Below are positions 399-50,874 of a DNA stretch of 64,000 nt, piece after piece. Made by a program: the position numbers and the translations under genes. The DNA is taken from the IMG/VR virus record IMGVR_UViG_2850773344_000009; one strand, given 5' to 3'. This stretch comes from a virus (Duplodnaviria > Heunggongvirae > Uroviricota > Caudoviricetes). The notes beneath the pieces were generated by a model. That model worked only from the letters and a program-made list of their open reading frames with translations, ran no database searches and was not told the DNA's origin. Position 1 is the stretch's first letter. Every line of letters begins with the position of its first letter.

Positions 399-433
399 CG
401 CTTCAATGGGAAATTGTTGTCGCCATTGTTCGA

Positions 434-736: not shown

Positions 737-1252
737 TATTAGCTCCTTCTGATGCCATTCTATTTCAGGAAGGAGTGTCCGTTAAACTCAGGCTACCTCA
801 TTTATCCGTTAAAAGGGATATCAGTTAAGATATCCCGTGTAGGGTATAAGCCATTATCAAAGCCACTCTGTAGGGAATGGCTTTTGTGATGGCATCACTT
901 ACTCTTTACGCTGCTATCCCACTCATCCCGGAATTTTGATGGGTTATTGAAACCTTCTGCTGACATAACAACTTCTTCAATGTTTGGCTGAAATTAGGAT
1001 GTCTTTCCATCAGTCCGCCACCACAAAGAATCTTTTTTGCCATAAGGCAGGAGGTTCATCTTTCAGTGGCTGCCAGTGTTATTTCCCCACTTACTGGCTT
1101 GGGTTGTTTCGCGGTACTGCCGTAACTGGTTGCCCAGAATAAATTCCGGTTTCATTATCAAGCTCACCCATTGATGGGCTTTGTAATGGATAGCTGTTGC
1201 TCAGTTCTCGTAATGCTTTGATTTTTCCGATAACGCAGTTTTGCGTTTGCCA

Positions 1253-20915: not shown

Positions 20916-21005
20916 CCACAGCCTCATACTCGATGAGGCCTGTTCATTGCTCAATGATATCCAGACCTACCGCAATAATACCAATCCAATAAATGGAGAT
21001 TCCAG

Positions 21006-21353
21006 GTGGAAGAAGAAATCTTCACTCGTGAAGAGGCAGCGTCGTATCTGAAGGTAGACAAAGGCACTATCACGCAGTGGATACGAAGTGGACGACTTCA
21101 GGCCGCAAAGATAAATCCAGATAAACCTAAAAGCCCATATCGCATTTGCAAGTCAGACTGCATTGCGGCGCTTAAGTCTGTGAGACACAATAGCGCGGTG
21201 AATGCGGTTGATGTGCAGGAGGTTAAAGCATGTCAATCAAACTACGCGGTGGCACGTGGCACTGCGATTTCGTCGCGCCAGATGGATCAAGAGTTAGACG
21301 CTCTCTTGAAACATCGGACAAAAGGCAAGCGCAAGAACTTCACGATCGTCTGA
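21006..21353 (+). CDS. xis: Excisionase-like DNA-binding protein
   Basis: 115-aa ORF (GTG start) with HTH-like segment, immediately upstream of and overlapping int. Confidence 0.6.
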   Translation: MEEEIFTREEAASYLKVDKGTITQWIRSGRLQAAKINPDKPKSPYRICKSDCIAALKSVRHNSAVNAVDVQEVKACQSNYAVARGTAISSRQMDQELDALLKHRTKGKRKNFTIV

Positions 21354-22390
21354 AAGCAGAAGCGTGGAGAGTAAAAAATCTCGGGGAATCACCGAAAAAG
21401 CTATTCAAGGAAGCCTGCATACGGTGGCTGCGTGAGAAATCGGATAAGAAGTCCATTGATGATGACAAGAGCATTATATCGTTCTGGATGTTGCACTTCA
21501 GAGAAGCCATTCTCTCTGACATAACAACAGAAAAAATAATGGAGGCGGTAGACGGGATGGAAAACCGCCGCCATCGCCTGAACTGGGAGATGAGCCGGGA
21601 CAGGTGTTTGCGACTTGGCAATCCGGTGCCGGAGTATAAACCAAAGCTTGCAAGCAAAGGAACGAAGACGAGGCATCTGGCAATACTTCGCGCCATTCTC
21701 AATATGGCTGTTGAATGGGGATGGCTTGACAGGGCACCCAAAATATCAACACCACGCGTTAAGAATGGACGCATCAGATGGCTTACAGAGGAGGAATCGA
21801 AGCGCCTGTTTGCAGAAATTGCTCCTCACTTCTTCCCTGTGGTCATGTTTGCAATCACGACAGGCCTTCGCCGTTCCAACGTTACAGACCTTGAGTGGTC
21901 ACAGGTCGATCTGGATAAGAAAATGGCATGGATGCACCCTGATGAAACAAAAGCTGGCAATGCGATCGGAGTTCCTCTTAACGAAACCGCATGCCAGATA
22001 TTAAGAAAACAGCAGGGGCTCCATAAGAGATGGGTATTTGTCCACACCAAACCTGCCTACCGAAGCGACGGAACAAAAACAGCAGCGGTAAGGAAGATGA
22101 GAACCGACAGCAACAAGGCATGGAAGGGAGCGTTAAAGCGGGCAGGCATTAGCAACTTCCGCTTCCATGATCTGAGGCATACCTGGGCAAGCTGGCTGGT
22201 TCAGTCCGGTGTCTCTCTTCTTGCACTTAAAGAGATGGGAGGATGGGAAACTCTCGAAATGGTTCAAAGATACGCCCACCTTTCAGCCGGGCATCTCACC
22301 GAGCACGCAAGCAAAATCGATGCGATTATAAGTCGCAATGGCACAAATACGGCACAAGAGGAGAACGTGGTTTACTTAAATGCGAGGTAA
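21230..22390 (+). CDS. int: Tyrosine integrase (P22/SfV-like)
   Basis: 386-aa ORF with aggagg RBS; C-terminal R...HDLRHTWAS...Y motifs of tyrosine recombinases; stop 15 nt before tRNA-derived core. Confidence 0.9.
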   Translation: MSIKLRGGTWHCDFVAPDGSRVRRSLETSDKRQAQELHDRLKAEAWRVKNLGESPKKLFKEACIRWLREKSDKKSIDDDKSIISFWMLHFREAILSDITTEKIMEAVDGMENRRHRLNWEMSRDRCLRLGNPVPEYKPKLASKGTKTRHLAILRAILNMAVEWGWLDRAPKISTPRVKNGRIRWLTEEESKRLFAEIAPHFFPVVMFAITTGLRRSNVTDLEWSQVDLDKKMAWMHPDETKAGNAIGVPLNETACQILRKQQGLHKRWVFVHTKPAYRSDGTKTAAVRKMRTDSNKAWKGALKRAGISNFRFHDLRHTWASWLVQSGVSLLALKEMGGWETLEMVQRYAHLSAGHLTEHASKIDAIISRNGTNTAQEENVVYLNAR

Positions 22391-22404
22391 CTTATTGATT
22401 TAAA

Positions 22405-22450
22405 TGGTGCCGATAATAGGAGTCGAACCTACGACCTTCGCATTACGAAT
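22405..22450 (-). other. attP-like core: 3' terminal 46 nt of tRNA-Thr(CGU) (thrW type), not a complete tRNA
   Basis: Minus strand reads attcgtaatgcgaaggtcgtaggttcgactcctattatcggcacca (anticodon loop CGT through CCA); upstream tRNA half absent. Confidence 0.85.
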
Positions 22451-22651
22451 TATAAGAATCCGCTTGTAATTCAAAGGATTATCCCATCAACACTGCGCTC
22501 ACACGTCCCACCACATCAAAACATGTAAAGCCTTGCAAGCCATTGTGAGGCCTTATGTGTCTCAGTTTTGTCTCATCAGACATAGCAAGTATCGATCAAT
22601 TGAGACTTGGATGATAGACTTCATGCCTTTCAGAGCTCATTGATTAAATAA

Positions 22652-23014
22652 ATGTTAAAGTTATTTGTAAAGTACACATCTATAGGTGTGCTGAACACAC
22701 TTATACACTGGGTGGTTTTTGGTGTATGTATCTATGCCGCACATACCAGTCAGGCTCTGGCAAACTTCACAGGTTTCGTAGTGGCTGTGAGCTTTAGCTT
22801 CTTCGCGAATGCAAGATTCACATTCAAAGCATCGACTACAGCGATGCGCTACATGTTATACGTGGGATTTATGGGAATATTGAGTGTGATTGTTGGTTGG
22901 GCAGCTGATAAATGCTCACTTCCTCCAATAGTCACTCTTATCACCTTCTCCGCCATCAGTCTGGTGTGCGGTTTCGTCTATTCAAAGTTCATTGTCTTTA
23001 GGGATGCGAAATGA
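22652..23014 (+). CDS. gtrA: GtrA (bactoprenol-glucose flippase)
   Basis: 120-aa four-[25 protein letters not shown]..., first gene of gtr operon. Confidence 0.9.
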
Positions 23015-23934
23015 AAATATCTCTTGTCGTTCCTGTCTTCAATGAAGAAGAAGCGATACCTGTTTTCTATAAAACGGTACGTGAATTCCAAGAGTTGAAG
23101 CCATATGAAGTAGAAATTGTATTCATAAATGACGGAAGTAAAGATGCCACAGAGTCAATTATTAACGCGCTGGCTGTTTCAGACCCGCTAGTTGTTCCGC
23201 TGTCATTTACACGCAACTTTGGTAAAGAACCAGCCTTATTTGCAGGGTTAGACCATGCAAGCGGCGATGCTGTAATTCCTATTGATGTCGACCTGCAAGA
23301 CCCAATTGAGGTTATCCCTCATCTTATTGAAAAGTGGCAGGCAGGTGCTGACATGGTGCTTGCTAAACGTTCAGACCGCTCAACTGATGGACGACTGAAA
23401 CGTAAGACAGCTGAGTGGTTCTATAAATTACACAACAAAATAAGCACCCCAAAGATCGAGGAAAATGTCGGAGATTTTCGACTCATGTCTCGTGAGGTTG
23501 TGGAGAACATTAAACTGTTGCCTGAGCGCAATCTTTTCATGAAAGGCATACTGAGCTGGGTGGGTGGTCAGACGGATGTCGTTGAATATGTACGCGCAGA
23601 GCGTGTTGCTGGCATCTCAAAATTTAATGGCTGGAAATTATGGAATCTGGCACTGGAAGGTATCACAAGTTTTTCAACCTTTCCTCTTCGCGTATGGACT
23701 TATATAGGCTTGTTTGTTGCAAGCATTTCATTTTTATATGGTGCATGGATGATTATAGACACCCTTGTCTTTGGTAACCCAGTACGCGGGTATCCCTCCC
23801 TGCTTGTATCAATACTTTTCTTGGGTGGAGTGCAGCTGATCGGGATTGGTGTTCTCGGTGAATATATAGGCAGAATCTATATTGAAAGCAAACATCGTCC
23901 CAAATACATCATCAAAAATGAGAAACAAAAATGA
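23011..23934 (+). CDS. gtrB: GtrB (bactoprenol glucosyltransferase, GT2 family)
   Basis: 307-aa ORF with N-terminal GT2 domain (VVPVFNEEE..., DxD) and C-terminal TM helices. Confidence 0.9.
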
Positions 23935-25184
23935 AAAGCCTTAAAACATCATATGTAAAAAAACTATTTTTCTTAATTGCTGTATTTTTCATTGCGGTTA
24001 TTTTGATGTATTTGCGCCGTCCTGATATAATCAGAACACCGCAGTTTTGGGCAGAAGATGGTCATGTATGGTATGCTATGGCATACAATAATGGCATATT
24101 CACATCAATGATATTCCCTCAAAATGGATATTATCAAACCATATCAAAACTTATTGCCTCCATATCATTAAATTTTAATTTAATGTATGCCCCTTTAATT
24201 TTTAACATCTCCGCAATTATTGTTAGGGCATTGCTTGTGTCTTTCATACTCTCTGGAAGATTTAGTTACGTAAACATAACACCAAGAATATTTACTGCTT
24301 TGTTTATTATAATAATGCCGGAAGTATCAGAAGTGCACGCCAATGTTACTAATGATCATTGGTATTTATCACTATATTTACTTCTTGTTATGTTAGCTCC
24401 AAAGCCTACAAATAATTATCAAAAAGCACACGATTATATAGCGATAATCATATGTGGACTAAGTGGTCCATTTATAGTATTCATGGCTCCAATGGTAGGG
24501 ATAAATATACTTATACAAAAACGCTTATCTACAAAAAAAATAACCACTCACGAATACGTTTTCATTGCTATTTGTTTTATTCAATTTATTTCTATTATCA
24601 TGACATCCTCTGAGACCAGAGTTGATATGGCTCTTGGAGCAAATTTCGCAACACTTTGCAAAATATTAACAACAAAGGTTTTTCTGGGTTTATGGGCTAA
24701 TGGTGACTTTTTATCACCTTTATGGAATCATGATTCAATTTGCATTGCAATTACAATGATTTGTCTTTCCATCACTATTTTTACATTTATTGTTTCCAAT
24801 TACCCCATGCGCTCGGCAATAGTTTTCGCAATACTAACATTAACGTTTTCACTAGCAAAACCAATGCTTTCGTCTACAAGTGAGCAATGGCCATTATTAA
24901 TTCATGGCGGAGGAAGATATTCTGTCATACCAACAATTATATGGTACTCTGTATTGGTTTACTTCTTAAACTATATTTCCCACTTGCACTTTAAATTCCT
25001 ACCATGGATGTTATATACAACATCGTTAATCTCATGTTTATATTTTTTCAATCTTACCCCACTCCCAGATTACGGGTGGAAAGAGCAAGTTAAAAAATTT
25101 GAAAGTTTAGCACCAGGAGAATCGTATTCTTTCAAGTTCAACCCTGCAGGATGGACGATGACATTAATAAAAAAACAGCCTTAA
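23931..25184 (+). CDS. Type-specific O-antigen glucosyltransferase Gtr(type) (polytopic membrane protein; serotype identity not resolved)
   Basis: 417-aa multi-TM ORF in strongly AT-rich DNA directly after gtrB. Confidence 0.8.
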
Positions 25185-25236
25185 TGTTGAATGGTAGTTA
25201 CTTAATGTTATTGATCTAAGTTTTGCATCAATAAAT

Positions 25237-25257
25237 CCCCCCCGAAACTTAGGGGGG
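25237..25257. terminator. Bidirectional hairpin terminator between convergent gtr operon and tail genes
   Basis: ccccccc-gaaactta-gggggg stem-loop. Confidence 0.5.
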
Positions 25258-25305
25258 CATCTGCAGTTATAATTAACGGCCTCTTTCTTCATCCGATAAC
25301 GCCCC

Positions 25306-25713
25306 TTATTTATTTTCCTCTGGTTTTTTCGGCCACTCTATATTTTTTATATCAACACGCATCAATAGCACCCGATATTTTTTCCATGCCAGTAACAGTT
25401 TCGTTTCATCATCTGTTGCCATATCTAAATCAACCGCATCCTGAAGCGGCGCTATTACATTCGTTGCCTCTGCTATCAGTGCAGATTTCTTTTCATTATT
25501 TATTAAGGCTAATTGTTCTGGTGTTGGAGAAGGACGGTCAACAATGACAGGGTGACCATTCTCACCACAGGTAATCATTTTTGTTACACTCTGCGAATTA
25601 ATCAGTGTTTTCCACTCTGATTCCGAGATTTCCACTGCATCATCAGGAATATTGGTGCCGTGAAATTCAGTCGAATAAAATCCGTTTGTCGATGCAGAAT
25701 AAAAATATGACAT
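25306..25713 (-). CDS. Tail fiber assembly protein (Tfa)
   Basis: C-terminal [15 protein letters not shown]...IEWP motif typical of Tfa chaperones; ATG at 25713. Confidence 0.75.
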
Positions 25714-25717
25714 TTCG

Positions 25718-26368
25718 TTAATATCCCATTGCAATGTAATACGCATCAGCAGATGAACCATATCCTGAACCGGGCGACACTGTAATATCAAATCCAGTGT
25801 TATGGACATTTGTCGCCGATACAGTCGGCTGCCCTGACGCGCCAGTAACTTTTAATGTAACTACGACAGCAATGACTCTTGAGAACGTCATCGGAAACTT
25901 CATCCCGTATGTTGAAGATACATTCGGGGCACCATTCAACTGACCACACTGTAAAATTAATCCAGACGGAAATTTTTGCGCAGCAGCCGTTACGGTATTA
26001 ATTGACGCGAACAGGCTCATATCAGGTATCTGATTCGCCCCTGTACCTACATTCCTTTTAGCTGCTTCTCCCAAACCAAGGTTTTCGAGAGCCGTTTTCA
26101 CCGTGCCATCCGATTTGATATCGCCAAACGGATTCTTGCGGCTTAACAGCAGCGCGCGAAGTGCGGTAAGCAACTGATCGTGCCGCCCCTTCTCCAGGCT
26201 GGCACCGGATGCCTCCACCACGCTGCAAAGCTCCTCCTGCAACATGTCAAAGTAGTCATCATCCAGATCGGTGGCAGGCGTGCCAGTCTGGGGGTTACCA
26301 CGGGTAAAACCGTTCTTACCCGCGCCGAACTTATCCTTCTGCGCGGTTTTCGTGTCTATACGATGCAT
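25718..26368 (-). CDS. Tail fiber protein
   Basis: 216-aa ORF immediately upstream of tfa, downstream of baseplate genes. Confidence 0.55.
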
Positions 26369-26371
26369 GGA

Positions 26372-26956
26372 TTACTCCGGATATTTAAAAATCACATAGG
26401 TATGCGACGGGCAGAGTTTGTTAAGCACACATTCGACAACGGTGTCGCCCCAGATACGCAGCGCGGAATCACAGGGATCGCCACATGTCATCCAGGTGGT
26501 GTTTGTGGCGGCTGGCATGTTGACCTGCCAGTAATACCGCCATTCCGGCACATTCACCGCGTCAGTACAGGCCGATGAGCAGGTGAACGTGCTTTTGTCG
26601 TATCGCGTGATGGTAGCGTCTGGTCTGCCCAGGGCAGCAAGCTGTGCAAGATAAAAATTCTCATTGATGCCGCCCGCCAGGTTAACCTTCGCATCCAGCC
26701 GTTGCTGACGCTGGCGAAGGGTCTGTGTCCCTGCGGGAATACATTCATCCGGCAGACCGCACAGACGCTCCCAGCGGTTTATCAGTTCAGTGGTGGTGCG
26801 CGGATCCAGCTCCCGCATCAGGGCATCCGCACGCTGATGAACGCGGGTTAATGACGGTGCCGCACCGGCAATCGACGGATCGCTGGCTGACCACGCCGGA
26901 CCGGGGGGCAACAGTGCCGACAACAGACGGATGTAATCATCGTTTGTCACGTCCAT
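26372..26956 (-). CDS. Mu gp48-like baseplate/tail protein
   Basis: 194-aa ORF, position after baseplate J homolog. Confidence 0.55.
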
Positions 26957-28005
26957 GAAATCGTCCCCAGAACCGCCAGTTCATTTTTCGCAATGGAGAT
27001 ATTGTCTGCCGGTGCAAGCAACTGATGGCTGTATTCCCCGTTCGCACCGGAAATCGCCTCACTGATACGCGATACCTTCAGTTTTCCCTGCGGATAACCA
27101 TCACGCAGCAGGAACGAACGCAACTCGGCGGTGATGGCAGCACGTATTTCGGGTGTGTCCGGCGTCACGCGAATATGAAAATCCACCATATGCGCCACCG
27201 GCCTGAACACATACAAATCAGAGCCTGCCACCGGGGCCAGTGGCTCAATGTGTTGTCTTGCCGCCGTTTCCGTTGATTCTTCCGGAATGGGATTAATCAG
27301 GTCACTGCTGGCAATCATCACACCGACAGTTCCCGTTCCCATCCAGTGACGGTATGTCCATGCGCGGGTAATGCCGGGCACTTCTTTAGCCCAGACGACA
27401 TAGTCCCCGTCAGCCCCGCCCTGAGGCGTCCAGTAATACCGCTCAATGACGCGGGCGCGCCACGTTTCCAGCTCTTCAGTATCAAATCCGCCTGTAAGGG
27501 TGTCAGCCACACCGGAAGACGGCAGACCATTCACCGGCGTGACCAGGATTAATGCCGTACCGTCGTCAGCGTTACCGACCGCACCTGCACTTGAGCAGGC
27601 GATCGGCACGCGCAGGACACCACCGGTGCTGGTTGCATCGTCAGTTGTCGTGTACTGCACCAGGTCATCGCGCTGAATAACACTCCCGGCGGTCACCTTC
27701 AGGCCATCGCTGACACCTTCCCAGCGCATATACCCGCTGGCAGCCGTGGCCCCCTTGCGCGGACACCGTTTCATCGCAGCATGTCGCGCCAGCCAGGACT
27801 CATCGCACAGGTCAGGCAGCATGTTCATTGCCAGATAATCGATGTAACCGTAAACCGTATGCAGCGCCGCCGCATACACCTTTGCCCGCACGTCTTCATC
27901 CATGCGCCGGAGAGTGTCGCTGACGTCCAGCCTGGCGAATAAATCGTTACGGAGCATACTGATATTTTCTGCCAGCGTCGGGCGCTGAAATTCACTGTCC
28001 GCCAT
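26947..28005 (-). CDS. Baseplate J-like protein (Mu gp47-like)
   Basis: 352-aa ORF in conserved Mu-like baseplate gene order. Confidence 0.7.
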
Positions 28006-28420
28006 GCGTTATCGCACTCCACAGATCATCAAAAGAAATCATTACCGGTCCGTCACGACGCCAGAGAGTGATACTGTTACCCAGTTCATTAATCCCGGTG
28101 CGGCGGATATCCAGATCAATACGGGACACCACGCCGTCATCAATCATCCATTGCAGGCATTCGCGGATATACCCCCTTACCGTCTGCACCAGCTGATTGG
28201 TCAGTTTGCTGCGCTGAAGCAGCCACAGTCGGGAGCCGTAACGGTCATTCTGTACCGCAGGCCAGGTATCCCCCCACCATCCCATCGGGACATCGGCGTT
28301 GTCATCAGGCTCCGCCCGCCGCCAGGTAAACAGGGAAATCACCACGGCGCGGGTCAGCGGATCCAGCTGTGCGCTGGCGCAGGTGCGTTTACCGTTCACC
28401 GTCAGCCACAGTTCCATCAT
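27992..28420 (-). CDS. Mu gp46-like baseplate protein
   Basis: 142-aa ORF, synteny. Confidence 0.55.
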   Translation of the reverse strand: MMELWLTVNGKRTCASAQLDPLTRAVVISLFTWRRAEPDDNADVPMGWWGDTWPAVQNDRYGSRLWLLQRSKLTNQLVQTVRGYIRECLQWMIDDGVVSRIDLDIRRTGINELGNSITLWRRDGPVMISFDDLWSAITHGGQ

Positions 28421-28965
28421 GCCTCCATCGCTTTATCAGGTTTGTCGGTGTTACTGCCCTGACCGTTCTCTCTGTGACGATGCCCGTTATAGGCAAGCCG
28501 CATCGCTGACATGGTGGTACCGCCGGAGTCGCACAGGTCTTTCACCTGTCCGGTCACTTCCAGGTCCATTTCAAAACGTGCTCTGGGCGCATTGCGAAAC
28601 GTGATCGTTTTACCTGCACCGTCCACCACGATCCCCTCCCGGGTCAGCGTCACAGACTGCCCCCGATCGTCATAGACAGCCACCTCACCCGTCTGCAGCC
28701 CTTTCAGGCGGTAGCGCCGGTCCGACACCGTAACAACCACCGCATGAGAACGGTCGCCATCCGGAAACAACACCACCGCTTCCGCACCGCTGTTTGCCCT
28801 TGCGGTAAAACCGTAGGGTTCAAGATGTTCAATCCCGGCTTTGGGTTCACCGGCAATCAGGGACACATCCACGGTCTGACATTTCGTGGCGGCACTGATG
28901 CTTTTCACCACTGCCCGCCCAATCAGGCCGAGGAGTTGTCGCTGCATGGCTTCAATCGTCCTCAT
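28417..28965 (-). CDS. Baseplate assembly protein V / spike (Mu gp45-like)
   Basis: 182-aa ORF, synteny and size. Confidence 0.6.
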   Translation of the reverse strand: MRTIEAMQRQLLGLIGRAVVKSISAATKCQTVDVSLIAGEPKAGIEHLEPYGFTARANSGAEAVVLFPDGDRSHAVVVTVSDRRYRLKGLQTGEVAVYDDRGQSVTLTREGIVVDGAGKTITFRNAPRARFEMDLEVTGQVKDLCDSGGTTMSAMRLAYNGHRHRENGQGSNTDKPDKAMEA

Positions 28966-30044
28966 CAGAACGGGTCCTCCTGTACTCTGGCTTTTTTCTT
29001 TTTCCGCGCGCCGGGGGCTTCGGGTTCAGGCAGATAAGCATCAGGCGGGCCGACACGGATTTCCGTCAGGGTGCCGTTCTGGTCCTGAGTAAACGTGACT
29101 TCCGAAACAAGCAGTTCGGTATTGTCGAAACCACAGACCGGATCAAAGACAATCACCCGCTGGTTGGGCTGCCACAGCGTACCGTTACCCTGTCGCCAGC
29201 CCTGCACCACATAGGTGGTTTCATCCGTCCGCGCCGCCCGTTGCCGGGCTTCAAAGTCAGCACGCGCAATACAGCCTGCCCCCGTAGCCTGCCCTGTCTG
29301 CCTGATATACATCGGACGGTAACGGTCAATAAATGCGTCCTCTGTGCGGGCCCGCAGCGCGGTGGTGGTGGCCTCACCGAAATCATCGTCGTTTCCGGCA
29401 CGCTGCCCCGCCACCTGGTAAACAGAAAATCGCTCCCGGATACTCTTCTCCGTATCGCAGGAAAGGATGTTTTCCCCGAGTACCAGCGCAGTATGTGCCC
29501 GCGTTGAGCCAATACCGCCAATCACCAGCCTGCCGTGCGGGTCGTCGTAAGCCAGTGCCTGCTGCTGACCGAGTATTTTGTTGATTACCTCAATCACCGT
29601 TTCACCGTGATCAGGCTGAACATCAGGAATAACACCCGACGGCGCACCGCTGTTCACCACCTCAATGCCGAAAGGCGCAGCAAGCGCCTGCGCAATCTGT
29701 ACCAGCGATCGTCCGTTAAACTGTGTCGGTTCGGCTGCACAGTCAATCAGGTCAGCGGTCAGACTGCGTCCGGCAATACCGGTGCTGACCGAACGGGCAT
29801 CGTAACGAACGGGCGTCGCCTCCACCCAGCCGGTGATCACCAGCTCATCACCAATCAGCACCTCCACTTTTGAACCGTTTTTAATGCGCGGCTGAAGCGT
29901 GGTAATACCCTCATCTCCCGGCCACTGGCGGGTGATCTCCACACTGAAATCCCGCGCCAGCCGTTCAATACCGACACCGATGCGCACCGATGTCCAGCCA
30001 TTCCACTCCCGGCCATTTACCCGTAGCGTGACATTGTCGTTCAT
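28965..30044 (-). CDS. Baseplate hub protein (Mu P-like)
   Basis: 359-aa ORF, synteny. Confidence 0.6.
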   Translation of the reverse strand: MNDNVTLRVNGREWNGWTSVRIGVGIERLARDFSVEITRQWPGDEGITTLQPRIKNGSKVEVLIGDELVITGWVEATPVRYDARSVSTGIAGRSLTADLIDCAAEPTQFNGRSLVQIAQALAAPFGIEVVNSGAPSGVIPDVQPDHGETVIEVINKILGQQQALAYDDPHGRLVIGGIGSTRAHTALVLGENILSCDTEKSIRERFSVYQVAGQRAGNDDDFGEATTTALRARTEDAFIDRYRPMYIRQTGQATGAGCIARADFEARQRAARTDETTYVVQGWRQGNGTLWQPNQRVIVFDPVCGFDNTELLVSEVTFTQDQNGTLTEIRVGPPDAYLPEPEAPGARKKKKARVQEDPF

Positions 30045-31411
30045 TGCACTGGCACCTTCAGAGGGATCACCGGCACAAAGCCGGGATGCGTAATGGCATT
30101 ACGCCGGATAATGTCCGCGTCACGCGCCGCGTTATCAAACCAGGTCGCCGCCAGCACCAGCGCGGGTAAAACCTCATCCGGTGTGCGCTGAATGATCCGT
30201 GCAGACTGTTCAAGGCGCGTGTTGATATCCGCATTCAGATCTGCTTTCACCCGGCGCAGCGCCAGAAACAGCGCATCGCTGGTTGTACGGGACAACTCCT
30301 TATCAATTGCCGTATTCAGTGTGTCGCGAATGTCAGTCAGTTCTTCCCACGTCGGCAGGTCAACCGTGTTTTTCACCGCCGGTGCATTGTTCAGTGCCGG
30401 ATGCGTGACGGAAGGCCAGCCAGTGCTCTGCGCGGGTGTTGTTGCCTGCCCCACTGCGGCATTCTGCATCACCGCGGAAGTTGTTGGCGCAGGCAATCGG
30501 GTGACGGCATACGCCGCTTCGCTGATTGCGGTCGTACGAAGGGTGCTGGCAACCATGTTACGCTGCTGCGTCGCCGTGGCGGTGGTTTTACTGTCCGTTT
30601 TCCAGACGCCGCGCGGTTGCAGATCGCTGCCGAGGCTGACACCGGAAAGCGTTTTGATCATGGTGACCAGGTCGCTGGCGTTACCATAAAGGCGTTTCCC
30701 GGTACGCCACATTTTCTGCACCTGCTCAACGAAATTTTTGCCTGACGATGGCGGCGGCAGAAGTACCGAGATATCCCCCTGCAACAGCCTGGCGGCATCC
30801 GATACGGCAGAATCCACCACTTTCATCGCATCAGAAACATACCCAAGCATTGTGCTGGCATTACCGACGACGTCGTTCTGCACAAAATCTGCCACGCCAT
30901 CGATACTGAAACCACTGAAGCTATCACTGATGCAGTCATCCAGTGCAGAACAGGATGACATCAGCGTCTGCGCCGTCGCCGCACCTGAAGTGGGGTAAGA
31001 GAGTTCTCCCGCTTCGACAAACTTCAGGTCAAAGCGGACAATACGCCCTTCACTCTTCGATGTGCTGACCCGAACTTCCCCGTCAACACAGACTTTCAGC
31101 TCACCATAAGTCGGATGGACAAGCGTGCCAGGACCGGGTTTATTCAGCGCGTCAATCAGGCGATCGCGCTGGTCAAAGCAGTCATCTCCCACCACATAAG
31201 CTGTGATGGACGGGCGAAAAGTGATTTTCCCCAGGTCTTCGGTATAGGGTTTGTCGCGGTTCGGGTATTCGTGCGTTTCCACACGGCGACCGGTTCCCGC
31301 ACTTTCTTCTTCAACCTTAAACGGCACACCGCGAAATGACGCGTCCTGAAGTCTGTCTTTCCACGTCATATAAACTCCGTACATAAAAAATCCCACCGGA
31401 GTGGGACTCAT
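30041..31411 (-). CDS. DNA circulation protein (Mu N-like); start possibly at internal Met
   Basis: 456-aa ORF directly downstream of tape measure gene. Confidence 0.6.
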   Translation of the reverse strand: MSPTPVGFFMYGVYMTWKDRLQDASFRGVPFKVEEESAGTGRRVETHEYPNRDKPYTEDLGKITFRPSITAYVVGDDCFDQRDRLIDALNKPGPGTLVHPTYGELKVCVDGEVRVSTSKSEGRIVRFDLKFVEAGELSYPTSGAATAQTLMSSCSALDDCISDSFSGFSIDGVADFVQNDVVGNASTMLGYVSDAMKVVDSAVSDAARLLQGDISVLLPPPSSGKNFVEQVQKMWRTGKRLYGNASDLVTMIKTLSGVSLGSDLQPRGVWKTDSKTTATATQQRNMVASTLRTTAISEAAYAVTRLPAPTTSAVMQNAAVGQATTPAQSTGWPSVTHPALNNAPAVKNTVDLPTWEELTDIRDTLNTAIDKELSRTTSDALFLALRRVKADLNADINTRLEQSARIIQRTPDEVLPALVLAATWFDNAARDADIIRRNAITHPGFVPVIPLKVPVQ

Positions 31412-31429
31412 TAACAGATTAATTTTTCA

Positions 31430-33265
31430 TTACCTGCCAAAGCGCGTATAGCCAACATCATGGCTGACATCAAAACCGCTGGATCGCGTTTCCATAACCC
31501 GCATACCCGGAGGCGAATTCACAAAAGAGACCTTGATCTCACCATCAACTTTTGGCGCAGAAGCTTTGTTAATCATGAAGGGATTCGGGCCTGTGGCATC
31601 GGAGGCGTTGTTTGACTGAGCCGGATCTACCGCCTGATAAGGTGTGTATCCCCGTGCCGGTATTCCCGTCCCATAAGCATCATAAGCACCCGCGCCCCAC
31701 TGCGCCGAGTTAATGGCATCGACCGTGTCACCGGAACTATCGGTAAACCATTCAATAATCGGCTTCAGCTTATCCCACATATCCTGAAACCACTTAACAA
31801 CCGGTCCCCAGTTATTGATCACCATCCCCAGCGGCGACCAGGCAAAAACCTTCTTCAGAAGTTCCCAGCCAGCCTCAAAATAAGGACTAATGGTTTCCCA
31901 GAGTTTCTTAAAATAAGGTCCGACAACATCCCAGTTAGTGATAATTAATCCCGCAGCCAGGGCAATCGCCGTCGCAATCATGCCAATCGGCGTCATCGAC
32001 ATGATCCTGCTGACGATACTGATGGCACTGCCCACGCCCATCAATCCCAGTTTCAGAATCGCAAGACCGGCAGCAAGCCCGACGACACCGCGAATAACCC
32101 GGGGATTTTCATCCGCAAACTTCGTGAATTTTTCCCCTAACTCCCCCAGCCATTGCGTGATATTTTTGGCGTCACCAGAAAATGCGCCGCCAATAGCCGC
32201 AAGGCCGTTAGTTGCGGTCCCCGTCATTGCCTCCCACAGGTTGGACAGCGTACCAAGCTGGGCCTGAACACGTTTATTCAGACTGGCCTGTTTATTCATC
32301 TTCTGCTGGATCTGATCGTAACCATCCTTTCCTTTATCGATCAGAGCATTTACCACCTGAAGGGTTTCGGCATCATCACCAAATATTGCCTTAAGTACAC
32401 CTGTTCGCTTAACGTCGGTCAGTTTTCGCAGCTTTGCCAGTTGTTTAAACATGTTATCAAGACCGCCAAAACTCCCTTTGCCGTCAGTAAAATCGAGCTG
32501 TACCCCGAGTTTCTGGCGGGCCATAACTTTATTGACGTCCCTGATTTTCTTAACGCTTAATCCGGACTGGATAACTTTTCGCAGGGCATTACCTGCCGAC
32601 TCCCCGTTCATCCCCATCTGATCCATCATGACGCTGATGGGGGCAAGGCTCTGTGCAGCCTGAAGACCGTCCTTGTTCACCATCTTCAGAACAGAACTGG
32701 TTTTAGTGAAGAAGGACAACATGTTGGTATCGTCAACGCCCAGATAAAACGCCTTCTGGATAGTGTCGAACAGCCCCATCATGTCTTCTGACGCCGTTCC
32801 GGTAGCATCCTGCATCTTTGCAGCAAACTCAGCAGCCGCTTCCGGTGTTTTTTTCAGTTGTACCGCAAGATAAGCTGTCGCTTTACCCACACCGCCAAGA
32901 ATGTTTTCTGCCTGGATCCCCTGACGCACCAGCATCTGCATCATGTTCTGGAAATCAGCCGTTGTACCGGGTAGCTGGTTACCCAGGCCAATAGCCAGTT
33001 TATTGATGTCCTGAAAGCTCTTTCCAACCTCGCCGTTCGCATCCATCATGGCGACTTTCAGCCCGGTGGCGGCGTTTTCCTGATCGGCATAAGATTTCAG
33101 GGAAAGCGTCAGACCCGCAGCCAGTCCGCCACCAAGCGCCAGCCCACCCTGTGACGCTTCTTCCGCCTGGCGTTTAAATCCCCGGATTTTCTTTTGCATT
33201 TTCGACAGCGCGGGAGAAAGCCTGTCGACACCGGTGATCAACGCCTTAAGCTCAAATTCAGCCAT
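31430..33265 (-). CDS. Tail tape measure protein
   Basis: 611-aa ORF, Gly/Ala-rich with hydrophobic segments, downstream of chaperone with frameshift. Confidence 0.8.
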   Translation of the reverse strand: MAEFELKALITGVDRLSPALSKMQKKIRGFKRQAEEASQGGLALGGGLAAGLTLSLKSYADQENAATGLKVAMMDANGEVGKSFQDINKLAIGLGNQLPGTTADFQNMMQMLVRQGIQAENILGGVGKATAYLAVQLKKTPEAAAEFAAKMQDATGTASEDMMGLFDTIQKAFYLGVDDTNMLSFFTKTSSVLKMVNKDGLQAAQSLAPISVMMDQMGMNGESAGNALRKVIQSGLSVKKIRDVNKVMARQKLGVQLDFTDGKGSFGGLDNMFKQLAKLRKLTDVKRTGVLKAIFGDDAETLQVVNALIDKGKDGYDQIQQKMNKQASLNKRVQAQLGTLSNLWEAMTGTATNGLAAIGGAFSGDAKNITQWLGELGEKFTKFADENPRVIRGVVGLAAGLAILKLGLMGVGSAISIVSRIMSMTPIGMIATAIALAAGLIITNWDVVGPYFKKLWETISPYFEAGWELLKKVFAWSPLGMVINNWGPVVKWFQDMWDKLKPIIEWFTDSSGDTVDAINSAQWGAGAYDAYGTGIPARGYTPYQAVDPAQSNNASDATGPNPFMINKASAPKVDGEIKVSFVNSPPGMRVMETRSSGFDVSHDVGYTRFGR

Positions 33266-33406
33266 GTGTGCGTTTCTCCTGCTCTATCCTGTTTGCCTGA
33301 CTGACCAGTAAGGGAATTTCACTGATCGGCATATTCAGCAATTCGAAAGGATTAATGCGCCAGTAGCTGGCGCAGTCAAAGAAGCGATCAGTGAGGTATT
33401 CAGCCG

Positions 33407-33676
33407 TCAGGCCTGGAGGAAAAAACCAGCCACAAGCCACGCCGCTGCATTCAGGTCTGCCGGAGACATCTGGTCGACAGAGCTTTGCGGCACTTTCGCC
33501 AGCCGCACAATGTATTTCGACACCACATGCGCCAGAAGTCTGACTGACTCATCCTGATTCATCTGGTAGGGATACCCCAGCTCGCGGACATCCTTCCCGG
33601 TGGGCTCATCAAACTCCAGTACGGAGAGTGTCTCGCCATGAGCAGTAATCGGTTTCTTTAACTCAAGCTCTTTCAT
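33407..33676 (-). CDS. Tail assembly chaperone (G-like); -1 frameshift extension continues to 33258
   Basis: 89-aa ORF ending in slippery ttttttc; overlapping -1 frame ORF 33258..33440. Confidence 0.65.
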   Translation of the reverse strand: MKELELKKPITAHGETLSVLEFDEPTGKDVRELGYPYQMNQDESVRLLAHVVSKYIVRLAKVPQSSVDQMSPADLNAAAWLVAGFFLQA

Positions 33677-34032
33677 TACTGGTAATCCCCTTCTTCACCG
33701 TGGAACTCAAGATCAACCGTGCCTTCTTCGGCATTATGGTTCGCTTCGCCGTGCAGCCAGGCAGACGACAGTACATAGACCTGACCGTTCGCCAACTCGG
33801 CAGTGATTGTCATCTCATCAGACGAGGTGATTTTGTTCACCGGAAAATTCTTCGGCACCTTGAAGGTCCCTTTGACATAAGGCGCACGGTGAGTTTCCTT
33901 GCGGTCCACTGAACCGTCCAGGCCGATGATGTCATCATTGACCGTCCTGTTCATGGGCACCTCAATGCCGCCGGTCAGCGATAGCTGCTGACCGTCAATT
34001 TTGAAATAACAGGTTCCCCCGATACGGGCCAT
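33676..34032 (-). CDS. Tail tube protein
   Basis: 118-aa ORF between sheath and chaperone. Confidence 0.7.
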   Translation of the reverse strand: MARIGGTCYFKIDGQQLSLTGGIEVPMNRTVNDDIIGLDGSVDRKETHRAPYVKGTFKVPKNFPVNKITSSDEMTITAELANGQVYVLSSAWLHGEANHNAEEGTVDLEFHGEEGDYQ

Positions 34033-35528
34033 TATGCAGACTCCTCTGAATACTGAAGACGGAACTGATTAACCACGGCAAAGACACGCAGCTGGTTAAC
34101 ATAGTCAGGCGGGAACAGCGTGTTAAGGCGGTTCGGATCGCTGGCATCACGCTCCACAACCAGGTACTGCTTAAACAGTTCGTAGTTTTCCACGATCCCC
34201 GCACGCTCAAGCTGACGGTAGGTTGCCAGCAGTTCCCCTTTGATCACCGCCGGGGTGACAATCGCCTGACCGGGACCAAAGCGGGTACCGTCACTGGCAA
34301 GCTTGTGACGCCCGTACTTACTGGTAATGACGGATTTCAGTTTGCGCAGTACATACGCGCTGGTATGCAGCGTCTCACTGTCGAGGTAACTGTTATCCGC
34401 AACCCCGTAAGCATTTTTCCTGTACGTGGTGACATCACGCTGAATGCGCAGCACCCCGCTTTCGACATACGCCGTTGCCACGCCATGAGACAGCAGGGTC
34501 TGCTGCTCGGTCATCGTGAACCGTTTCCCCTTCGGCGCAGGCAGCATACCCACCAGCTCACCGGTCTGCGTGGGACGTGCCGGATCGTTGCGGATAAACA
34601 CCGCTGCGCGGGCGGTACGGCTTGCCGCCAGCTCGTCGGCAGGCGTCTGGGTCTCTTTTTCGTACCCCGCCAGGGTGATGTGCTGCTGGTTAAACTGGTC
34701 ACCTGCGTTCACCAGTTCTGACAGTGTGCCGGTCTTTGCCGTATACACATGACCATACAGCTGACGCGCATAGCTCCAGCGACCGCTGGTATCGTTCATC
34801 TCGGTCACCAGCGTGTTAACGGAGGCCGTGTCGTTGAACGGCAGACCGATATAATCAAACGGCTCATCCGCCATTGCAGCCACCGCGCCGGTGAGAACCG
34901 GAGCGCCCGTTCCGGCGGTCCCCGTCGCCACGGCAATCTGTACGCCCGCTGGCAGCACTTCGCCCCCACCGAAGCCGTAGTAATTGAGGCTGACAGGAAT
35001 TTCATTCCCGCAAAGCCCCTTATGACGCGCGGTCAGCGTGACAACACCAGCCGAAGATGAAGCTGTAAACGGCAGAGTCGGAACGGCATTGATGGCATCT
35101 TTGATACTGCTGGCAATCGTCGTGACGTTATCGCCGTTGGTCACCGGAGCCTGCACGCGGGTACGTCCCACATAGACATTCACCGTGCCGCTTTCGGTTG
35201 CTTCCCCGGTCACCGTCAGCGTAACCGTTGCCGCCGCGCCTGTGGCTTCCGGAACGGCAATCACATACAGCTCACCAAACGGGTCGGTCTGGCGATAAGC
35301 CTCGACCATACGCGCCAGCTGACTTCCCGCACCACAAATCTGGCGTGCATAGTCTGCCGACGGCATCAGCACCAGACTGTTGGCAACAATCTCTGCACCG
35401 TTATTGGCATGACCAATCAGCAGCGATGCTCCGCTGTCCTGTGCAGTATTCGCAGCCTGGTTATCCATTTCCGCATAAAACAGCGGAACCAGCGTATTCG
35501 ACGGAATGGTGTTAAAGCTTATCGTCAT
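34032..35528 (-). CDS. Contractile tail sheath protein
   Basis: 498-aa ORF, size and synteny of Mu L-type sheath. Confidence 0.8.
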   Translation of the reverse strand: MTISFNTIPSNTLVPLFYAEMDNQAANTAQDSGASLLIGHANNGAEIVANSLVLMPSADYARQICGAGSQLARMVEAYRQTDPFGELYVIAVPEATGAAATVTLTVTGEATESGTVNVYVGRTRVQAPVTNGDNVTTIASSIKDAINAVPTLPFTASSSAGVVTLTARHKGLCGNEIPVSLNYYGFGGGEVLPAGVQIAVATGTAGTGAPVLTGAVAAMADEPFDYIGLPFNDTASVNTLVTEMNDTSGRWSYARQLYGHVYTAKTGTLSELVNAGDQFNQQHITLAGYEKETQTPADELAASRTARAAVFIRNDPARPTQTGELVGMLPAPKGKRFTMTEQQTLLSHGVATAYVESGVLRIQRDVTTYRKNAYGVADNSYLDSETLHTSAYVLRKLKSVITSKYGRHKLASDGTRFGPGQAIVTPAVIKGELLATYRQLERAGIVENYELFKQYLVVERDASDPNRLNTLFPPDYVNQLRVFAVVNQFRLQYSEESA

Positions 35529-35682
35529 CGGTGTTCACCTTTTTATTCACGCGCCGGATATCACCCGCTGCTTCACGGCGCAGCCAGTAGTTGTTCTCAT
35601 CAACATTTCGCCCTTCGGCGGGCAAAAGGTCGCCGCGGGCAGGGTCAGGCACTGACCGCCCTTTAACAGGTTTGACAAACAT
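35512..35682 (-). CDS. Small conserved tail-region protein
   Basis: 56-aa ORF MFVKPVKGRSVPDPARGDLLPAEGRNVDENNYWLRREAAGD..., hand-translated. Confidence 0.4.
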   Translation of the reverse strand: MFVKPVKGRSVPDPARGDLLPAEGRNVDENNYWLRREAAGDIRRVNKKVNTDDDKL

Positions 35683-35690
35683 GAGGATCC

Positions 35691-36251
35691 TCAGGAAGGA
35701 AGGGTTATTTCGGTGTGATGTTCTATATCGCCGTCAGGCCCGTTACCGGGCTCGAGATAATCAACATCAATCGCCAGCGTTTGCAGTTCATCCAGACTGT
35801 TCAGATCATCCTGCTGGCGGGTATCGTCTTCAGTCAGCTCGCTGATGACCGAAAAATCGAACTGATAAATCAGCTCATGACGATTCAGATCCAGCAGCGT
35901 GCCGCCGTCATAGGTAATCGGGTTACCGCACGCCTCCGGGTTCCAGCCCAGCAGAGCCTTAAAGAGCATCTGCCGGACATCGTCCACCACATCATACGAG
36001 GCAAACTGACCGCGCTCATCACGCCCGTTACTCAGTATGACAACCACGGAGAAACCCTCTTTCAGCTCCTGCCAGTAGTCGGTCTGGCTTTTGTTTTCTC
36101 CCGGAGAATCATCACCCGGTACAACATATGCCGCCGGGAGTTTCAGCTTTCCGACCTCCGGCAGATTTTTGAACTGGGCCGCGCCTGCAACCCGGTTTTC
36201 AAAATACGGACAGCGGGCACGCAGTGCAGCAATAACAGGCGTCAGTTTCAT
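35691..36251 (-). CDS. Putative tail completion/neck protein
   Basis: 186-aa ORF between head-tail joining genes and sheath. Confidence 0.4.
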   Translation of the reverse strand: MKLTPVIAALRARCPYFENRVAGAAQFKNLPEVGKLKLPAAYVVPGDDSPGENKSQTDYWQELKEGFSVVVILSNGRDERGQFASYDVVDDVRQMLFKALLGWNPEACGNPITYDGGTLLDLNRHELIYQFDFSVISELTEDDTRQQDDLNSLDELQTLAIDVDYLEPGNGPDGDIEHHTEITLPS

Positions 36252-36754
36252 CTGTGTCGTCGCTCCGGCTTCAGTGATTTACGCAATTCCCGCGCCAGAA
36301 AATAGCGTGTCCAGCTGCGGTTCTTTTCAAGCGTTTCCACCATGAAGTTATTACGTGGAGCCAGTCGCCAGCCGCTGCCACCGGATGCACCACGATGATG
36401 GCTGCGACGACGCTTTGCCCCTCGCCTCACGCCATAGAACAAAAAAGCCGGATAAAAATCACCGGTGATACGGCGGTTTCCCTCTCCATTACGCTGGTTA
36501 GGGGCTATACGTGCCATAAAACCAGGGCGATGTTTACTGGCTCTGGGTACCATGTAACCAATCGAACGAGCCAGGCGTCCGGTCTGATAACCGGGGTTTT
36601 CACCCGGTGCCGACCGCGCACGGCGCATCACCAGCCGACGGGCATCACGCATATGACGCTGACCAATCGTGACAAACGCCCGCCGGACACGGGCGCGGTT
36701 AAAGCGCATCTCCGCGGGCTGCTGAAAATCAACGTGCAAAAAGGAAGTCGCCAT
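36248..36754 (-). CDS. Virion morphogenesis / head-tail joining protein
   Basis: 168-aa Arg-rich ORF, synteny. Confidence 0.45.
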   Translation of the reverse strand: MATSFLHVDFQQPAEMRFNRARVRRAFVTIGQRHMRDARRLVMRRARSAPGENPGYQTGRLARSIGYMVPRASKHRPGFMARIAPNQRNGEGNRRITGDFYPAFLFYGVRRGAKRRRSHHRGASGGSGWRLAPRNNFMVETLEKNRSWTRYFLARELRKSLKPERRHR

Positions 36755-37139
36755 TGCTGCCTCCGTGACTCTGCGTAAATTCGCCCAGCTCCGTACACTC
36801 CAGCAGCAGAAAGCGCCGCGCCCCGTTCAGATCGCGCTGACGTTTCACCCGGTACACACTGTCACCGCAGACCACCTCATAATCAGCGGTGATCCCCCTG
36901 CGGTAACGAATGGTGATGTAATGGGTGATGGCGTCCCCGGTCTGCGCGGTTTCCTGCCAGGTGGTGGCACTGGTCTGGATAACCTTCGCCCATGTCCGGA
37001 ACGTAACCGGATATTGAGGCTCCACGCCAAAGTTATCCGCGGGCATATCCACCCGCTGGCGGATCAGGACGCGTTTATTCAGTTCGCCGGGGTCCGGCAG
37101 AATGTAGGTTGCGCTGGTCTGCGCCTGACGAATTTTCAT
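36729..37139 (-). CDS. Head-tail adaptor protein
   Basis: 136-aa ORF, synteny. Confidence 0.45.
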   Translation of the reverse strand: MKIRQAQTSATYILPDPGELNKRVLIRQRVDMPADNFGVEPQYPVTFRTWAKVIQTSATTWQETAQTGDAITHYITIRYRRGITADYEVVCGDSVYRVKRQRDLNGARRFLLLECTELGEFTQSHGGSNGDFLFAR

Positions 37140-37459
37140 TGCGGAAAGTACCTGTACGGGCCAACAAGCCAGCCAAAACTCTGCGGCATGTCGAGTTTCT
37201 CCACTTCCGTAACCGACGAGCGGTTTTCGTAAAAATGGCTGATAAGCATCAGCATCCCCAGACGAATATCATCCGGCAGGTGTAGCCCGTCCGGGTCGCT
37301 GTCCGGAATGGTTTCATCCGGTGCATAGAGCTTCCGGTTCAGATACGTTTCCGTCCGCTTTTGCGCCGCACAGGCCAGCAGTTGCAGATGGCGGTCATCA
37401 ACATCGAAATCCTCATCCAGCCGGAGTTGGGCTTTAATCTCTTCCATTGTCAGAAGCAT
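37136..37459 (-). CDS. Head-tail connector (gp6-like) protein
   Basis: 107-aa ORF directly after capsid region. Confidence 0.5.
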   Translation of the reverse strand: MLLTMEEIKAQLRLDEDFDVDDRHLQLLACAAQKRTETYLNRKLYAPDETIPDSDPDGLHLPDDIRLGMLMLISHFYENRSSVTEVEKLDMPQSFGWLVGPYRYFPQ

Positions 37460-37461
37460 AC

Positions 37462-40994: not shown

Positions 40995-41414
40995 TTAAAG
41001 CGAGCGGATCCCATAGGACTCAATGTAGTCAGACAACGTGTCTTCTTTCTCGTACAGCATGGCTCTGCCAACCGCCATAATCAGCGCAACTGCACCATCG
41101 ATTTTGTTTTCCGCCTGCTCTTTGACGGGCTTCACCACATCATCGTTACCCGGAATGGTTTTGCCGACCACGTTGCCGATACACCAGGTCATGATGGGAT
41201 TGCCATCATGATGAAAGCGCCCCGATTCAATTGCCGCTTCCAGCTCTTTCATCGGGTCGGACATGTTGGTGTAGTTCTGAATGATAGTGATGGGGTTCAG
41301 GTCTTCATCAGCAAGGTCATGTGACAACCCGGTCGCCCCGAAGGGGTCGATGGGTGACTCACTGACCGGGCTGATTTTGTTCGCCGCTTTGGCCTCCTCG
41401 AGGATGTAGCGATA
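40995..41414 (-). pseudogene. Large terminase subunit, C-terminal ~140 codons only; 5' portion removed at IS600 junction
   Basis: Reading frame runs to the IS600 end at 41415; nuclease-domain-like C-terminus; no small terminase nearby. Confidence 0.6.
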
Positions 41415-42250
41415 TGAGGTAGCCTGAGTTTAACGGACACTCCTTCCTGAAATAGAATGGCATCAGAAGGAGCTAATAATGAGCAGAAAAACCCAACGTT
41501 ACTCTAAAGAGTTCAAAGCCGAAGCTGTCAGAACGGTTCTTGAAAATCAACTTTCAATCAGTGAAGGCGCTTCCCGATTATCCCTTCCTGAAGGCACTTT
41601 AGGACAATGGGTTACCGCCGCCAGAAAAGGGCTCGGTACTCCTGGTTCCCGCACGGTGGCTGAACTGGAATCTGAAATTCTGCAACTGCGTAAGGCGTTA
41701 AATGAAGCTCGCCTTGAGCGAGATATATTAAAAAAAGCAACAGCGTATTTTGCACAGGAGTCGCTGAAAAATACGCGTTAATCGAACAATGGCGACAACA
41801 ATTTCCCATTGAAGCGATGTGTCAGGTATTTGGTGTATCCAGGAGCGGTTATTACAACTGGGTACAGCATGAACCCTCAGACAGAAAACAAAGTGATGAG
41901 CGGCTAAAACTGGAGGTTAAGGTGGCACATATCCGCACTCGCGAAACATATGGAACCCGGCGGCTCCAGACGGAGCTGGCAGAGAATGGCATCATCGTTG
42001 GTCGTGACCGACTGGCACGTCTTCGTAAGGAGCTGAGGCTACGCTGTAAGCAGAAACGCAAGTTCAGAGCGACTACGAACCCGAACCACAATCTGCCAGT
42101 TGCGCCAAATCTGCTGAACCAGACGTTCGCTCCTACAGCACCAAATCAGGTCTGGGTGGCGGACCTGACGTATGTTGCCACACAGGAGGGATGGTTGTAC
42201 CTCGCTGGCATCAAAGATGTTTATACGTGCGAAATTGTCGGCTACGCCAT
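41415..42250 (+). mobile_element. IS600 second copy, 5' ~836 bp only
   Basis: Identical to reverse complement of 1..800; orfB reading frame ends prematurely at the breakpoint. Confidence 0.9.
41479..41781 (+). CDS. IS600 OrfA
   Basis: Identical 100-aa ORF to 434..736. Confidence 0.9.
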   Translation: MSRKTQRYSKEFKAEAVRTVLENQLSISEGASRLSLPEGTLGQWVTAARKGLGTPGSRTVAELESEILQLRKALNEARLERDILKKATAYFAQESLKNTR

Positions 42251-43509: not shown

Positions 43510-43563
43510 CCTGTTTACCTCTTTCTCAGGAAGTTTAGTCTCCAGGATTCCCGGGGCGGTTCA

Positions 43564-43647
43564 CGTTGGGTTTTTCTGCTCATTATTAGCTCCTTCTGAT
43601 GCCATTCTATTTCAGGAAGGAGTGTCCGTTAAACTCAGGCTACCTCA
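43564..43647 (-). mobile_element. IS600 fragment: left terminal 84 bp in minus orientation
   Basis: Matches 717..800; terminus at 43647 abuts the gp16-like gene. Confidence 0.85.
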
Positions 43648-46697: not shown

Positions 46698-46706
46698 GAT
46701 TACCCC

Positions 46707-47399: not shown

Positions 47400-47401
47400 G
47401 G

Positions 47402-50687: not shown

Positions 50688-50874
50688 CCTTCAAAAGGTC
50701 ATCAGGATGTGAAAACCAGCCAGCATCCAGATATTCCTGAAGCTCTTCGGCTTTCACGATTTCAAAGTCGTAGCCAACGCCTTTCCACTTCTTCATGTCG
50801 CCATGACGAAAGATCATGTGTGTCATGCTTGTCTCCAGATAAAAACGGGAGCCGAAGCTCCCTCTGGTTATCAC
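50602..50874 (-). CDS. Small ORF overlapping gp4 start (uncertain)
   Basis: 90-aa ORF between coat and gp4; may be spurious. Confidence 0.25.

Follow-up and report, generated by a model that had tools for sequence, protein, structure and literature searches.

The type V serotype-conversion operon of phage SfV, gtrA-gtrB-gtrV, in a composite prophage remnant that very probably represents the SHI-O locus of Shigella flexneri serotype 5

In Shigella flexneri, the O-antigen defines the serotype and is the protective antigen, and serotype 5 is determined by gtrV, a gene that serves as a standard target for polymerase chain reaction (PCR) and genomic serotyping. The closest described system is that of phage SfV (U82619.2/NC_003444.1), whose gtrA-gtrB-gtrV genes were reportedly described by Huan et al. 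in 1997 and Allison et al. in 2002. Lysogeny by SfV converts serotype Y to serotype 5a (PMC3851460), and the accepted model of glucosylation runs in three steps from GtrB to GtrA to a type-specific Gtr protein, with attachment of the glucose in the periplasm (PMC3259042). The chromosomal SHI-O locus of S. flexneri 5 strain 8401 also carries gtrA, gtrB, and gtrV, with guanine plus cytosine (G+C) contents of 42.71% (mean of gtrA and gtrB) and 32.99% (gtrV), and an SfV segment of ~15 kb is described there as well (PMC1550401). Here, we examined positions 22652-25184 of a 64,000-nt stretch of DNA assigned to a tailed virus (IMG/VR record IMGVR_UViG_2850773344_000009; this whole stretch is referred to as the window). 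An earlier reading of the same DNA, referred to below as the original prediction, had proposed an O-antigen glucosylation operon at this location and left its serotype unassigned. We are nearly certain that the segment is the SfV serotype-conversion operon, retained in the chromosomal SHI-O locus of S. flexneri serotype 5 and making the type V antigen. The missing serotype is type V (5a/5b). The operon is already known, as this locus has been described both for phage SfV and for an S. flexneri 5b genome. With gtrV recognized, the window can be identified as SHI-O DNA of serotype 5 S. flexneri, and no new biology follows from it. The three genes are as follows:

22652-23014, plus strand: gtrA, 120 amino acids, PF04138 (E 1.9e-14), 120/120 identity with SfV GtrA; a small membrane protein and proposed flippase for undecaprenyl-phosphate-glucose (Und-P-glucose)
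23011-23934, plus strand: gtrB, 307 amino acids, PF00535 (E 7.4e-31), 307/307 identity with SfV GtrB; a bactoprenol (undecaprenyl-phosphate) glucosyltransferase of glycosyltransferase family 2 (GT2)
23931-25184, plus strand: gtrV, 417 amino acids; the O-antigen glucosyltransferase with type V specificity, polytopic in the membrane and predicted to adopt a glycosyltransferase C (GT-C) fold

These genes correspond to three tightly packed plus-strand open reading frames (ORFs) of 120, 307, and 417 codons. The four-nucleotide overlap between gtrA and gtrB that had been reported in the original prediction is an ATGA, and a second ATGA overlap of the same length, unmentioned there, joins gtrB to gtrV; the two overlaps suggest translational coupling within one transcript. 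A megablast search of window positions 22400-25300 against 50,697 phage records matched SfV along the entire query (100%) with 98.6% identity, the corresponding genes being annotated as a putative flippase (gtrA), a bactoprenol glucosyltransferase (gtrB), and a serotype-specific glucosyl transferase (gtrV), together with a terminator, while SfI, SfII, and SfIV matched the gtrAB half only. In addition to the complete identity of GtrA and GtrB, 406 of the 417 GtrV residues (97.4%) are identical to SfV GtrV over the full length without gaps, and no frameshift is present in any of the three proteins. Thus, the reading of the genes as gtrA, gtrB, and a type-specific gtr was borne out, including for the third gene, on whose similarity to a type-specific Gtr transferase that reading had been staked. 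GtrA exceeds the PF04138 cut-off (54.3 bits versus 26.1) and GtrB scores 107.8 bits against PF00535, aligns along its entire length with sll0501, a GtrB homologue of solved structure (PDB 5EKP; E 1.8e-88), and gives weaker matches to ArnC and DPMS. The 417-residue protein shares a 90% cluster with AAB72132.1 and belongs to no Pfam or NCBIfam family, so its assignment as GtrV rests on the direct identity to SfV GtrV together with its predicted fold. Nothing that we found speaks against the identity of the genes.

We assign type V because the exact GtrV protein is encoded by the serotype 5 strains 8401 and M90T and because SfV lysogeny yields serotype 5a. An exact look-up of the protein identified many assemblies, four of which contain a 21-kb context that is 99.96-99.99% identical to window positions 13932-35183, with the same gene order. 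In strain 8401 (CP000266.1), the matching context lies at 264667-285920 and is 99.96% identical over 21 kb (5 mismatches and 3 gaps), while the corresponding comparison with GCA_026013175.1 yielded 0 mismatches and 2 gaps. The SHI-O locus of 8401, a 5b strain, and its counterpart in the 5a strain M90T are effectively the locus in the window, with an identical GtrV, the same order of flanking genes, and no substantive difference. A search for gtrV in 5,426 complete RefSeq Escherichia coli genomes gave no match; some draft genomes labelled E. coli do hold members of the GtrV cluster.

A key feature of the operon is the base composition of its third gene. The G+C content of gtrV is 32.93%, as compared to 43.0% for gtrA, 42.5% for gtrB, and 42.71% for the two combined; the adjacent integrase gene (int) has 49.4%, the tail genes have 55.8%, and the window as a whole has 50.0%. 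The values for gtrV and for gtrA and gtrB combined agree with those published for strain 8401, as does the continuous 15.5-kb SfV-like block. Only 0.2% of 1254-nt segments are as AT-rich as gtrV, and the minimum overlaps gtrV itself. Therefore, the original description of the third gene as markedly more AT-rich than its neighbors holds, even though the AT run quoted in its support, ttaattttaatttaatg, does not occur verbatim; the actual run is TTAAATTTTAATTTAATG at 24168-24185, which is one A longer, and the quoted form is a copying slip. The tract of low G+C continues beyond gtrV into the tail fiber assembly gene (25306-25809; 38.9%), which matches the right-hand boundary of the gtrABV cassette in other contexts, and G+C then climbs to 50-56% in the tail fiber and baseplate genes.

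We consider it unlikely that the AT-richness of gtrV simply reflects the composition of a very hydrophobic membrane protein rich in Ile, Leu, Phe, Asn, and Lys, rather than a separate foreign origin. GtrV is indeed rich in I, L, F, Y, N, and K, and gtrA and gtrB, which encode membrane proteins as well, are likewise below the mean G+C of the window. However, G+C at third codon positions is 28% in gtrV versus 47% in gtrA and 39% in gtrB, indicating that the synonymous positions are AT-rich as well, and the neighboring tail fiber assembly gene is also low without encoding a membrane protein. Furthermore, we compared the type-specific genes taken from annotated phage records, namely gtrI (SfI), gtrII (SfII), gtrIV (SfIV), gtrX (SfX), and the P22-like gtrC (SPN9CC). 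All of them have a G+C content of 32-33%, and gtrI, gtrII, gtrIV, and the P22-like gtrC are not homologous to gtrV and lie beside near-identical gtrAB genes. Thus, whichever type gene fills the third position of the cassette, low G+C is the general rule there, and the combined evidence fits better with a separately acquired type-gene module.

The segments flanking the operon contain the following features:

21230-22390, plus strand: int, a mosaic tyrosine integrase of 386 amino acids (PF00589, E 9.5e-35), SfV-like (96%) from 21924
22405-22450, plus strand: the 46-bp core of the phage attachment site (attP), intact, between int and gtrA; identical to the annotated SfI attP core and equal to the reverse complement of the 3' end of the tRNA-Thr gene thrW
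22530-22564, plus strand: hairpins resembling terminators, between attP and gtrA and thus also downstream of int; a putative rho-independent terminator is annotated at this position in SfII
22583-22651, plus strand: the conserved gtrA leader, a probable promoter region
25237-25257, no strand assigned: a G+C-rich hairpin and putative terminator between the stop codons of the convergent gtrV and tail fiber assembly genes
25306-25809, minus strand: the convergent tail fiber assembly gene (SfV orf22; PF02413, E 1.4e-28), in agreement with the SfV annotation

Three observations limit this picture. First, 11 residues of the window GtrV are not those given in the SfV GenBank record. Second, a sigma-70 consensus scan of the 261-bp gtrA leader found no promoter match. 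Third, the hairpin at 25237-25257 has a T-rich tail on the minus (tail-gene) strand only, as its stem is followed by CATCTGCAG on the gtr strand. With respect to the leader, inspection of 22590-22630 by eye also found no convincing pair of -35/-10 hexamers. The attP core lies 201 nt upstream of gtrA, and the 261-bp spacer between int and gtrA is 99% conserved among SfV, SfII, SfI, and SfIV. Within it, the 46 nt at 22585-22630, ahead of gtrA, are almost unchanged even across three unrelated prophage contexts, with a single variable position, a degree of conservation that suggests a regulatory region. In the phase-variable gtr operons of Salmonella, which are controlled by a Dam/OxyR switch, the DNA upstream of gtrA contains several GATC sites, which are paired within half-sites for OxyR. 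The spacer in the window has one GATC site, at 22594.

With respect to the 3' end of the operon, the original prediction had placed a bidirectional terminator between gtrV and a convergent tail fiber assembly gene. The convergent gene is confirmed by its PF02413 match, and a hairpin is indeed present between the two genes with a T-rich tail for the minus strand, whereas the gtr strand has no T tail. Predicted folding is stronger for the minus strand (-18.9 kcal/mol; z -2.8) than for the plus strand (-15.0 kcal/mol; z -1.7), and a rho-independent terminator is annotated at the equivalent site in SfV. Judged by its sequence, bidirectionality of the hairpin seems plausible and is only half supported. 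An Rfam scan of 21000-26500 found no match above the gathering score. It should be noted that one sub-threshold match, to the candidate E. coli small RNA IS009 (25343-25540, minus strand; 50.9 bits versus a gathering score of 117; E 9e-10), falls within the coding sequence of the tail fiber assembly gene. Probably, this match does not mark a separate RNA gene but arises because the Rfam seed includes homologous tail fiber assembly sequence from prophages.

The absence of a consensus promoter match upstream of gtrA would also be expected if the operon were a silent relic, such that gtrABV is unexpressed or inactive in a defective, rearranged prophage and the host lacks the type V antigen. The prophage is damaged, as its SfV-like large terminase gene is interrupted at 41414 by an IS3-family insertion sequence (IS), its early region is not SfV-like, and its head genes from 37460 onward are of another type. 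Nevertheless, all three gtr ORFs are intact and full-length, with GtrA and GtrB identical to those of the functional phage SfV, and the gtr leader is 99% identical to those of the inducible converting phages SfI, SfII, and SfIV. GtrV also retains D380 and the invariant residues of its family, and the identical protein and context are found in strains typed as serotype 5 (8401 and M90T; PMC1550401). We therefore regard a silent relic as highly improbable and favor an operon that makes type V antigen.

When GtrV was aligned against the other Gtr types, as the original prediction had suggested, the only similarity besides the 97.4% identity to SfV GtrV was to GtrX of SfX (L05001.1; group 7,8 antigen), a protein of similar length with 34.6% identity over 413 residues (E 1.7e-71), while GtrI, GtrII, GtrIV, and the P22-like GtrC all gave blastp E values >2. 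Similarly, a tblastn search of GtrV against the 50,697 phage records matched SfV and SfX only (E ≤1). GtrX is thus the only other characterized type-specific Gtr protein with detectable homology and belongs to the same GtrV/GtrX family, although it differs from GtrV in acceptor sugar and antigen, and the window protein is a homologue of GtrX rather than a member of it. GtrI, GtrII, GtrIV, and the P22-type GtrC occupy the same slot after near-identical gtrAB genes and are likewise polytopic membrane proteins, but are longer than GtrV (437-506 versus 417 amino acids). There is only a negligible chance that the third gene has another specificity, GtrX-like or new, with another sugar or linkage: it is homologous to GtrX and its codon differences from the SfV record are 11 non-synonymous and 10 synonymous, compared to no amino acid differences in GtrA and GtrB, but its identity to GtrV far exceeds that to GtrX, its allele is the common one and is carried by serotype 5 strains, and at the conserved position G44 it is the window allele that holds the invariant residue.

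The differences between the window and the SfV record bear closer inspection in this regard. The two sequences differ at 41 nucleotides within 2.9 kb: gtrV accounts for 21 of these and gtrB for 11 silent ones, while the leader has 2 and the downstream segment 7. Residue 44 of GtrV (window position 24061) is G in the window and in 47 homologues without exception, yet A in the SfV record (U82619.2), and at leader positions 22496 and 22596 the window agrees with SfI, SfII, and SfIV, leaving the SfV record as the outlier. The other eight GtrV substitutions that were checked are at variable columns of the family and favor neither allele. From the sequence comparison, the three outlier positions in the 1997 SfV record are probably private variants or sequencing errors. 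The window allele of GtrV (ABF02532.1; the M90T UniRef entry) is present on 71 contigs, while the SfV-record allele occurs in the phage record only. Together with the outliers at G44 and in the leader, this indicates that the chromosomal allele looks typical, and none of the 11 residue differences suggests a change of specificity. Overall, SfV and the window have the same genes in the same order, with the same overlaps, the same attP-proximal location, and the same convergent tail fiber assembly gene. They differ in that the window has only ~15.5 kb of SfV-like DNA (21924-37460), with the remainder of the prophage being different or broken.

In the pathway described in the literature for these proteins, GtrB would transfer glucose from UDP-glucose onto undecaprenyl phosphate on the membrane's cytoplasmic side, GtrA would flip the resulting Und-P-glucose to the periplasmic face, and the integral membrane GT-C enzyme GtrV would then add a single glucosyl branch from Und-P-glucose to the growing O-antigen repeat, N-acetylglucosamine-RhaI-RhaII-RhaIII (Rha, rhamnose). 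The attachment site would be rhamnose II in an alpha-1,3 linkage; this linkage is said to have been reported by Huan et al. in 1997 and Allison and Verma in 2000, and a search for an open-access statement of a Glc-alpha-1,3-RhaII linkage found none. The product would be the type V antigen, with conversion of serotype Y to 5a or of serotype X to 5b. All three genes may be expressed from a single transcript, extending from the conserved leader downstream of attP to the hairpin at 25237-25257. The gene identities and the fold are established here, and the chemistry, the promoter, and the site of termination are inferred.

Although GtrV matches no domain model, its family could be examined directly. 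A search of 5.8 billion proteins identified 55 homologues, and in an alignment of 48 of these, residues E42, D43, G44, Y67, R110, W144, S178-G179-P180, Q218, and R329-Y330 are invariant. The E42/D43/G44 motif lies directly after the first transmembrane helix (TM1) and is invariant across 47 homologues. An AlphaFold2 model of GtrV built upon the 48-homologue alignment has a mean pLDDT of 95 and a pTM of 0.93. Thus, a GT-C fold can be predicted with confidence for the GtrV/GtrX family, which has neither a Pfam model nor a solved relative and in which an E-D-G motif following TM1 is invariant. In this model, the E42-D43 pair would sit just past TM1, at the point where the catalytic acidic residues of GT-C enzymes are found. 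According to the passage of PMC3259042 that cites Korres and Verma 2006, D380 is also important for GtrV function. The window GtrV has D380 and therefore keeps the residues reported or presumed to be essential, namely D380 and the acidic pair E42/D43 of periplasmic loop 2. A profile of the 48 homologues found no solved structure related to GtrV by sequence. GT-C transferases with polyprenyl-phosphate or -diphosphate donors (ALG12, ArnT, PglB/STT3, Pmt, and AftA/B) have only 8-13% sequence identity to GtrV, which is smaller than these enzymes and has only a short beta hairpin domain as its soluble C-terminal part.

The operon is also found outside of SfV-like surroundings. At least three further prophage backbones, which have different tail modules and lie elsewhere in the chromosome, carry an identical GtrV with cassette DNA that is 97-98% identical (8597 to ~12100 of the compared sequences): near fadI/mlaA with a different integrase, beside a PBP5-like gene and eut genes, and between bioA-ybhB and ybhC. 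In these three contexts, the left boundary of homology is always window position 22527, just past attP, and the homology ends at 25443-26082, inside the tail fiber assembly or tail fiber genes. On balance, we lean toward the view that gtrABV is a self-contained, transplantable cassette, rather than a fixed part of phage SfV. If so, the capacity for type V conversion circulates on phages other than SfV, including those in isolates labelled E. coli.

The prophage surrounding the operon is a defective, IS-disrupted composite remnant and not an intact SfV lysogen. By blastn, SfV matches a single continuous block, with window positions 21924-37460 corresponding to SfV 21118-5579. The int gene spans the left end of this block, as its 5' third (the first ~700 nt) is not SfV-like, with 69% identity over a short stretch, and instead resembles HK542-type lambdoid phages in a match extending up to 22000. 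The early region from ~800 to 22000 resembles lambdoid phages of the HK542/mEpX2 type. On the other side, from 37460, the genes for head, portal, and protease differ from those of SfV, belong to a different HK97 type, and are 99.5% identical to prophages of several E. coli genomes. The attP core is the sole copy in the window at ≤3 mismatches, and the window contains no tRNA genes. The adjacency of int, attP, and gtrA is a phage-type junction, whereas in a simple lysogen at thrW the prophage would have int at one end and gtrA at the other. For type IV strains, a similar chromosomal int-attP-gtrA arrangement has been noted (PMC3851460). An intact attP between int and gtrA in chromosomal, IS-rich DNA suggests either tandem lysogeny or homologous insertion into a resident prophage. 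A likely but unproven history is that tandem lysogeny, or else recombination with a resident prophage, came first and that IS elements then mediated deletions.

The IS3-family element that cuts the SfV-like large terminase gene occupies 41414-42214 and has an inverted copy at 1-801 (99.6% identical), such that the two copies bracket 802-41413; an 85-bp fragment of an IS end at 43563-43647 directly precedes P22-like genes. A single inversion between the copies at 1-801 and 41414-42214 was considered and rejected, as the IS-adjacent sequences do not restore a canonical prophage. In the S. flexneri genome CP026799.1 (5609-7295 of the compared sequence, set against window positions 1-804 and 21222), this IS directly adjoins position 21222 on the upstream side of int, and a truncated second copy of int and proA-thrW lie on the other side of the IS. 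This record lacks the lambdoid early region at ~805-21221 of the window, which is consistent with an IS-adjacent deletion. The P22-like structural module, at 43635-57154 on the minus strand, encodes a terminase, a 721-residue portal, scaffold, coat, and ejection proteins. Escherichia phages APC_JM3.2, Dewey, and IME10 match this module at ~97% identity, and it directly borders the disrupted SfV-like module. Past the P22-like module are further IS elements and a lysis cassette, which includes a lysozyme gene at 61212-61745.

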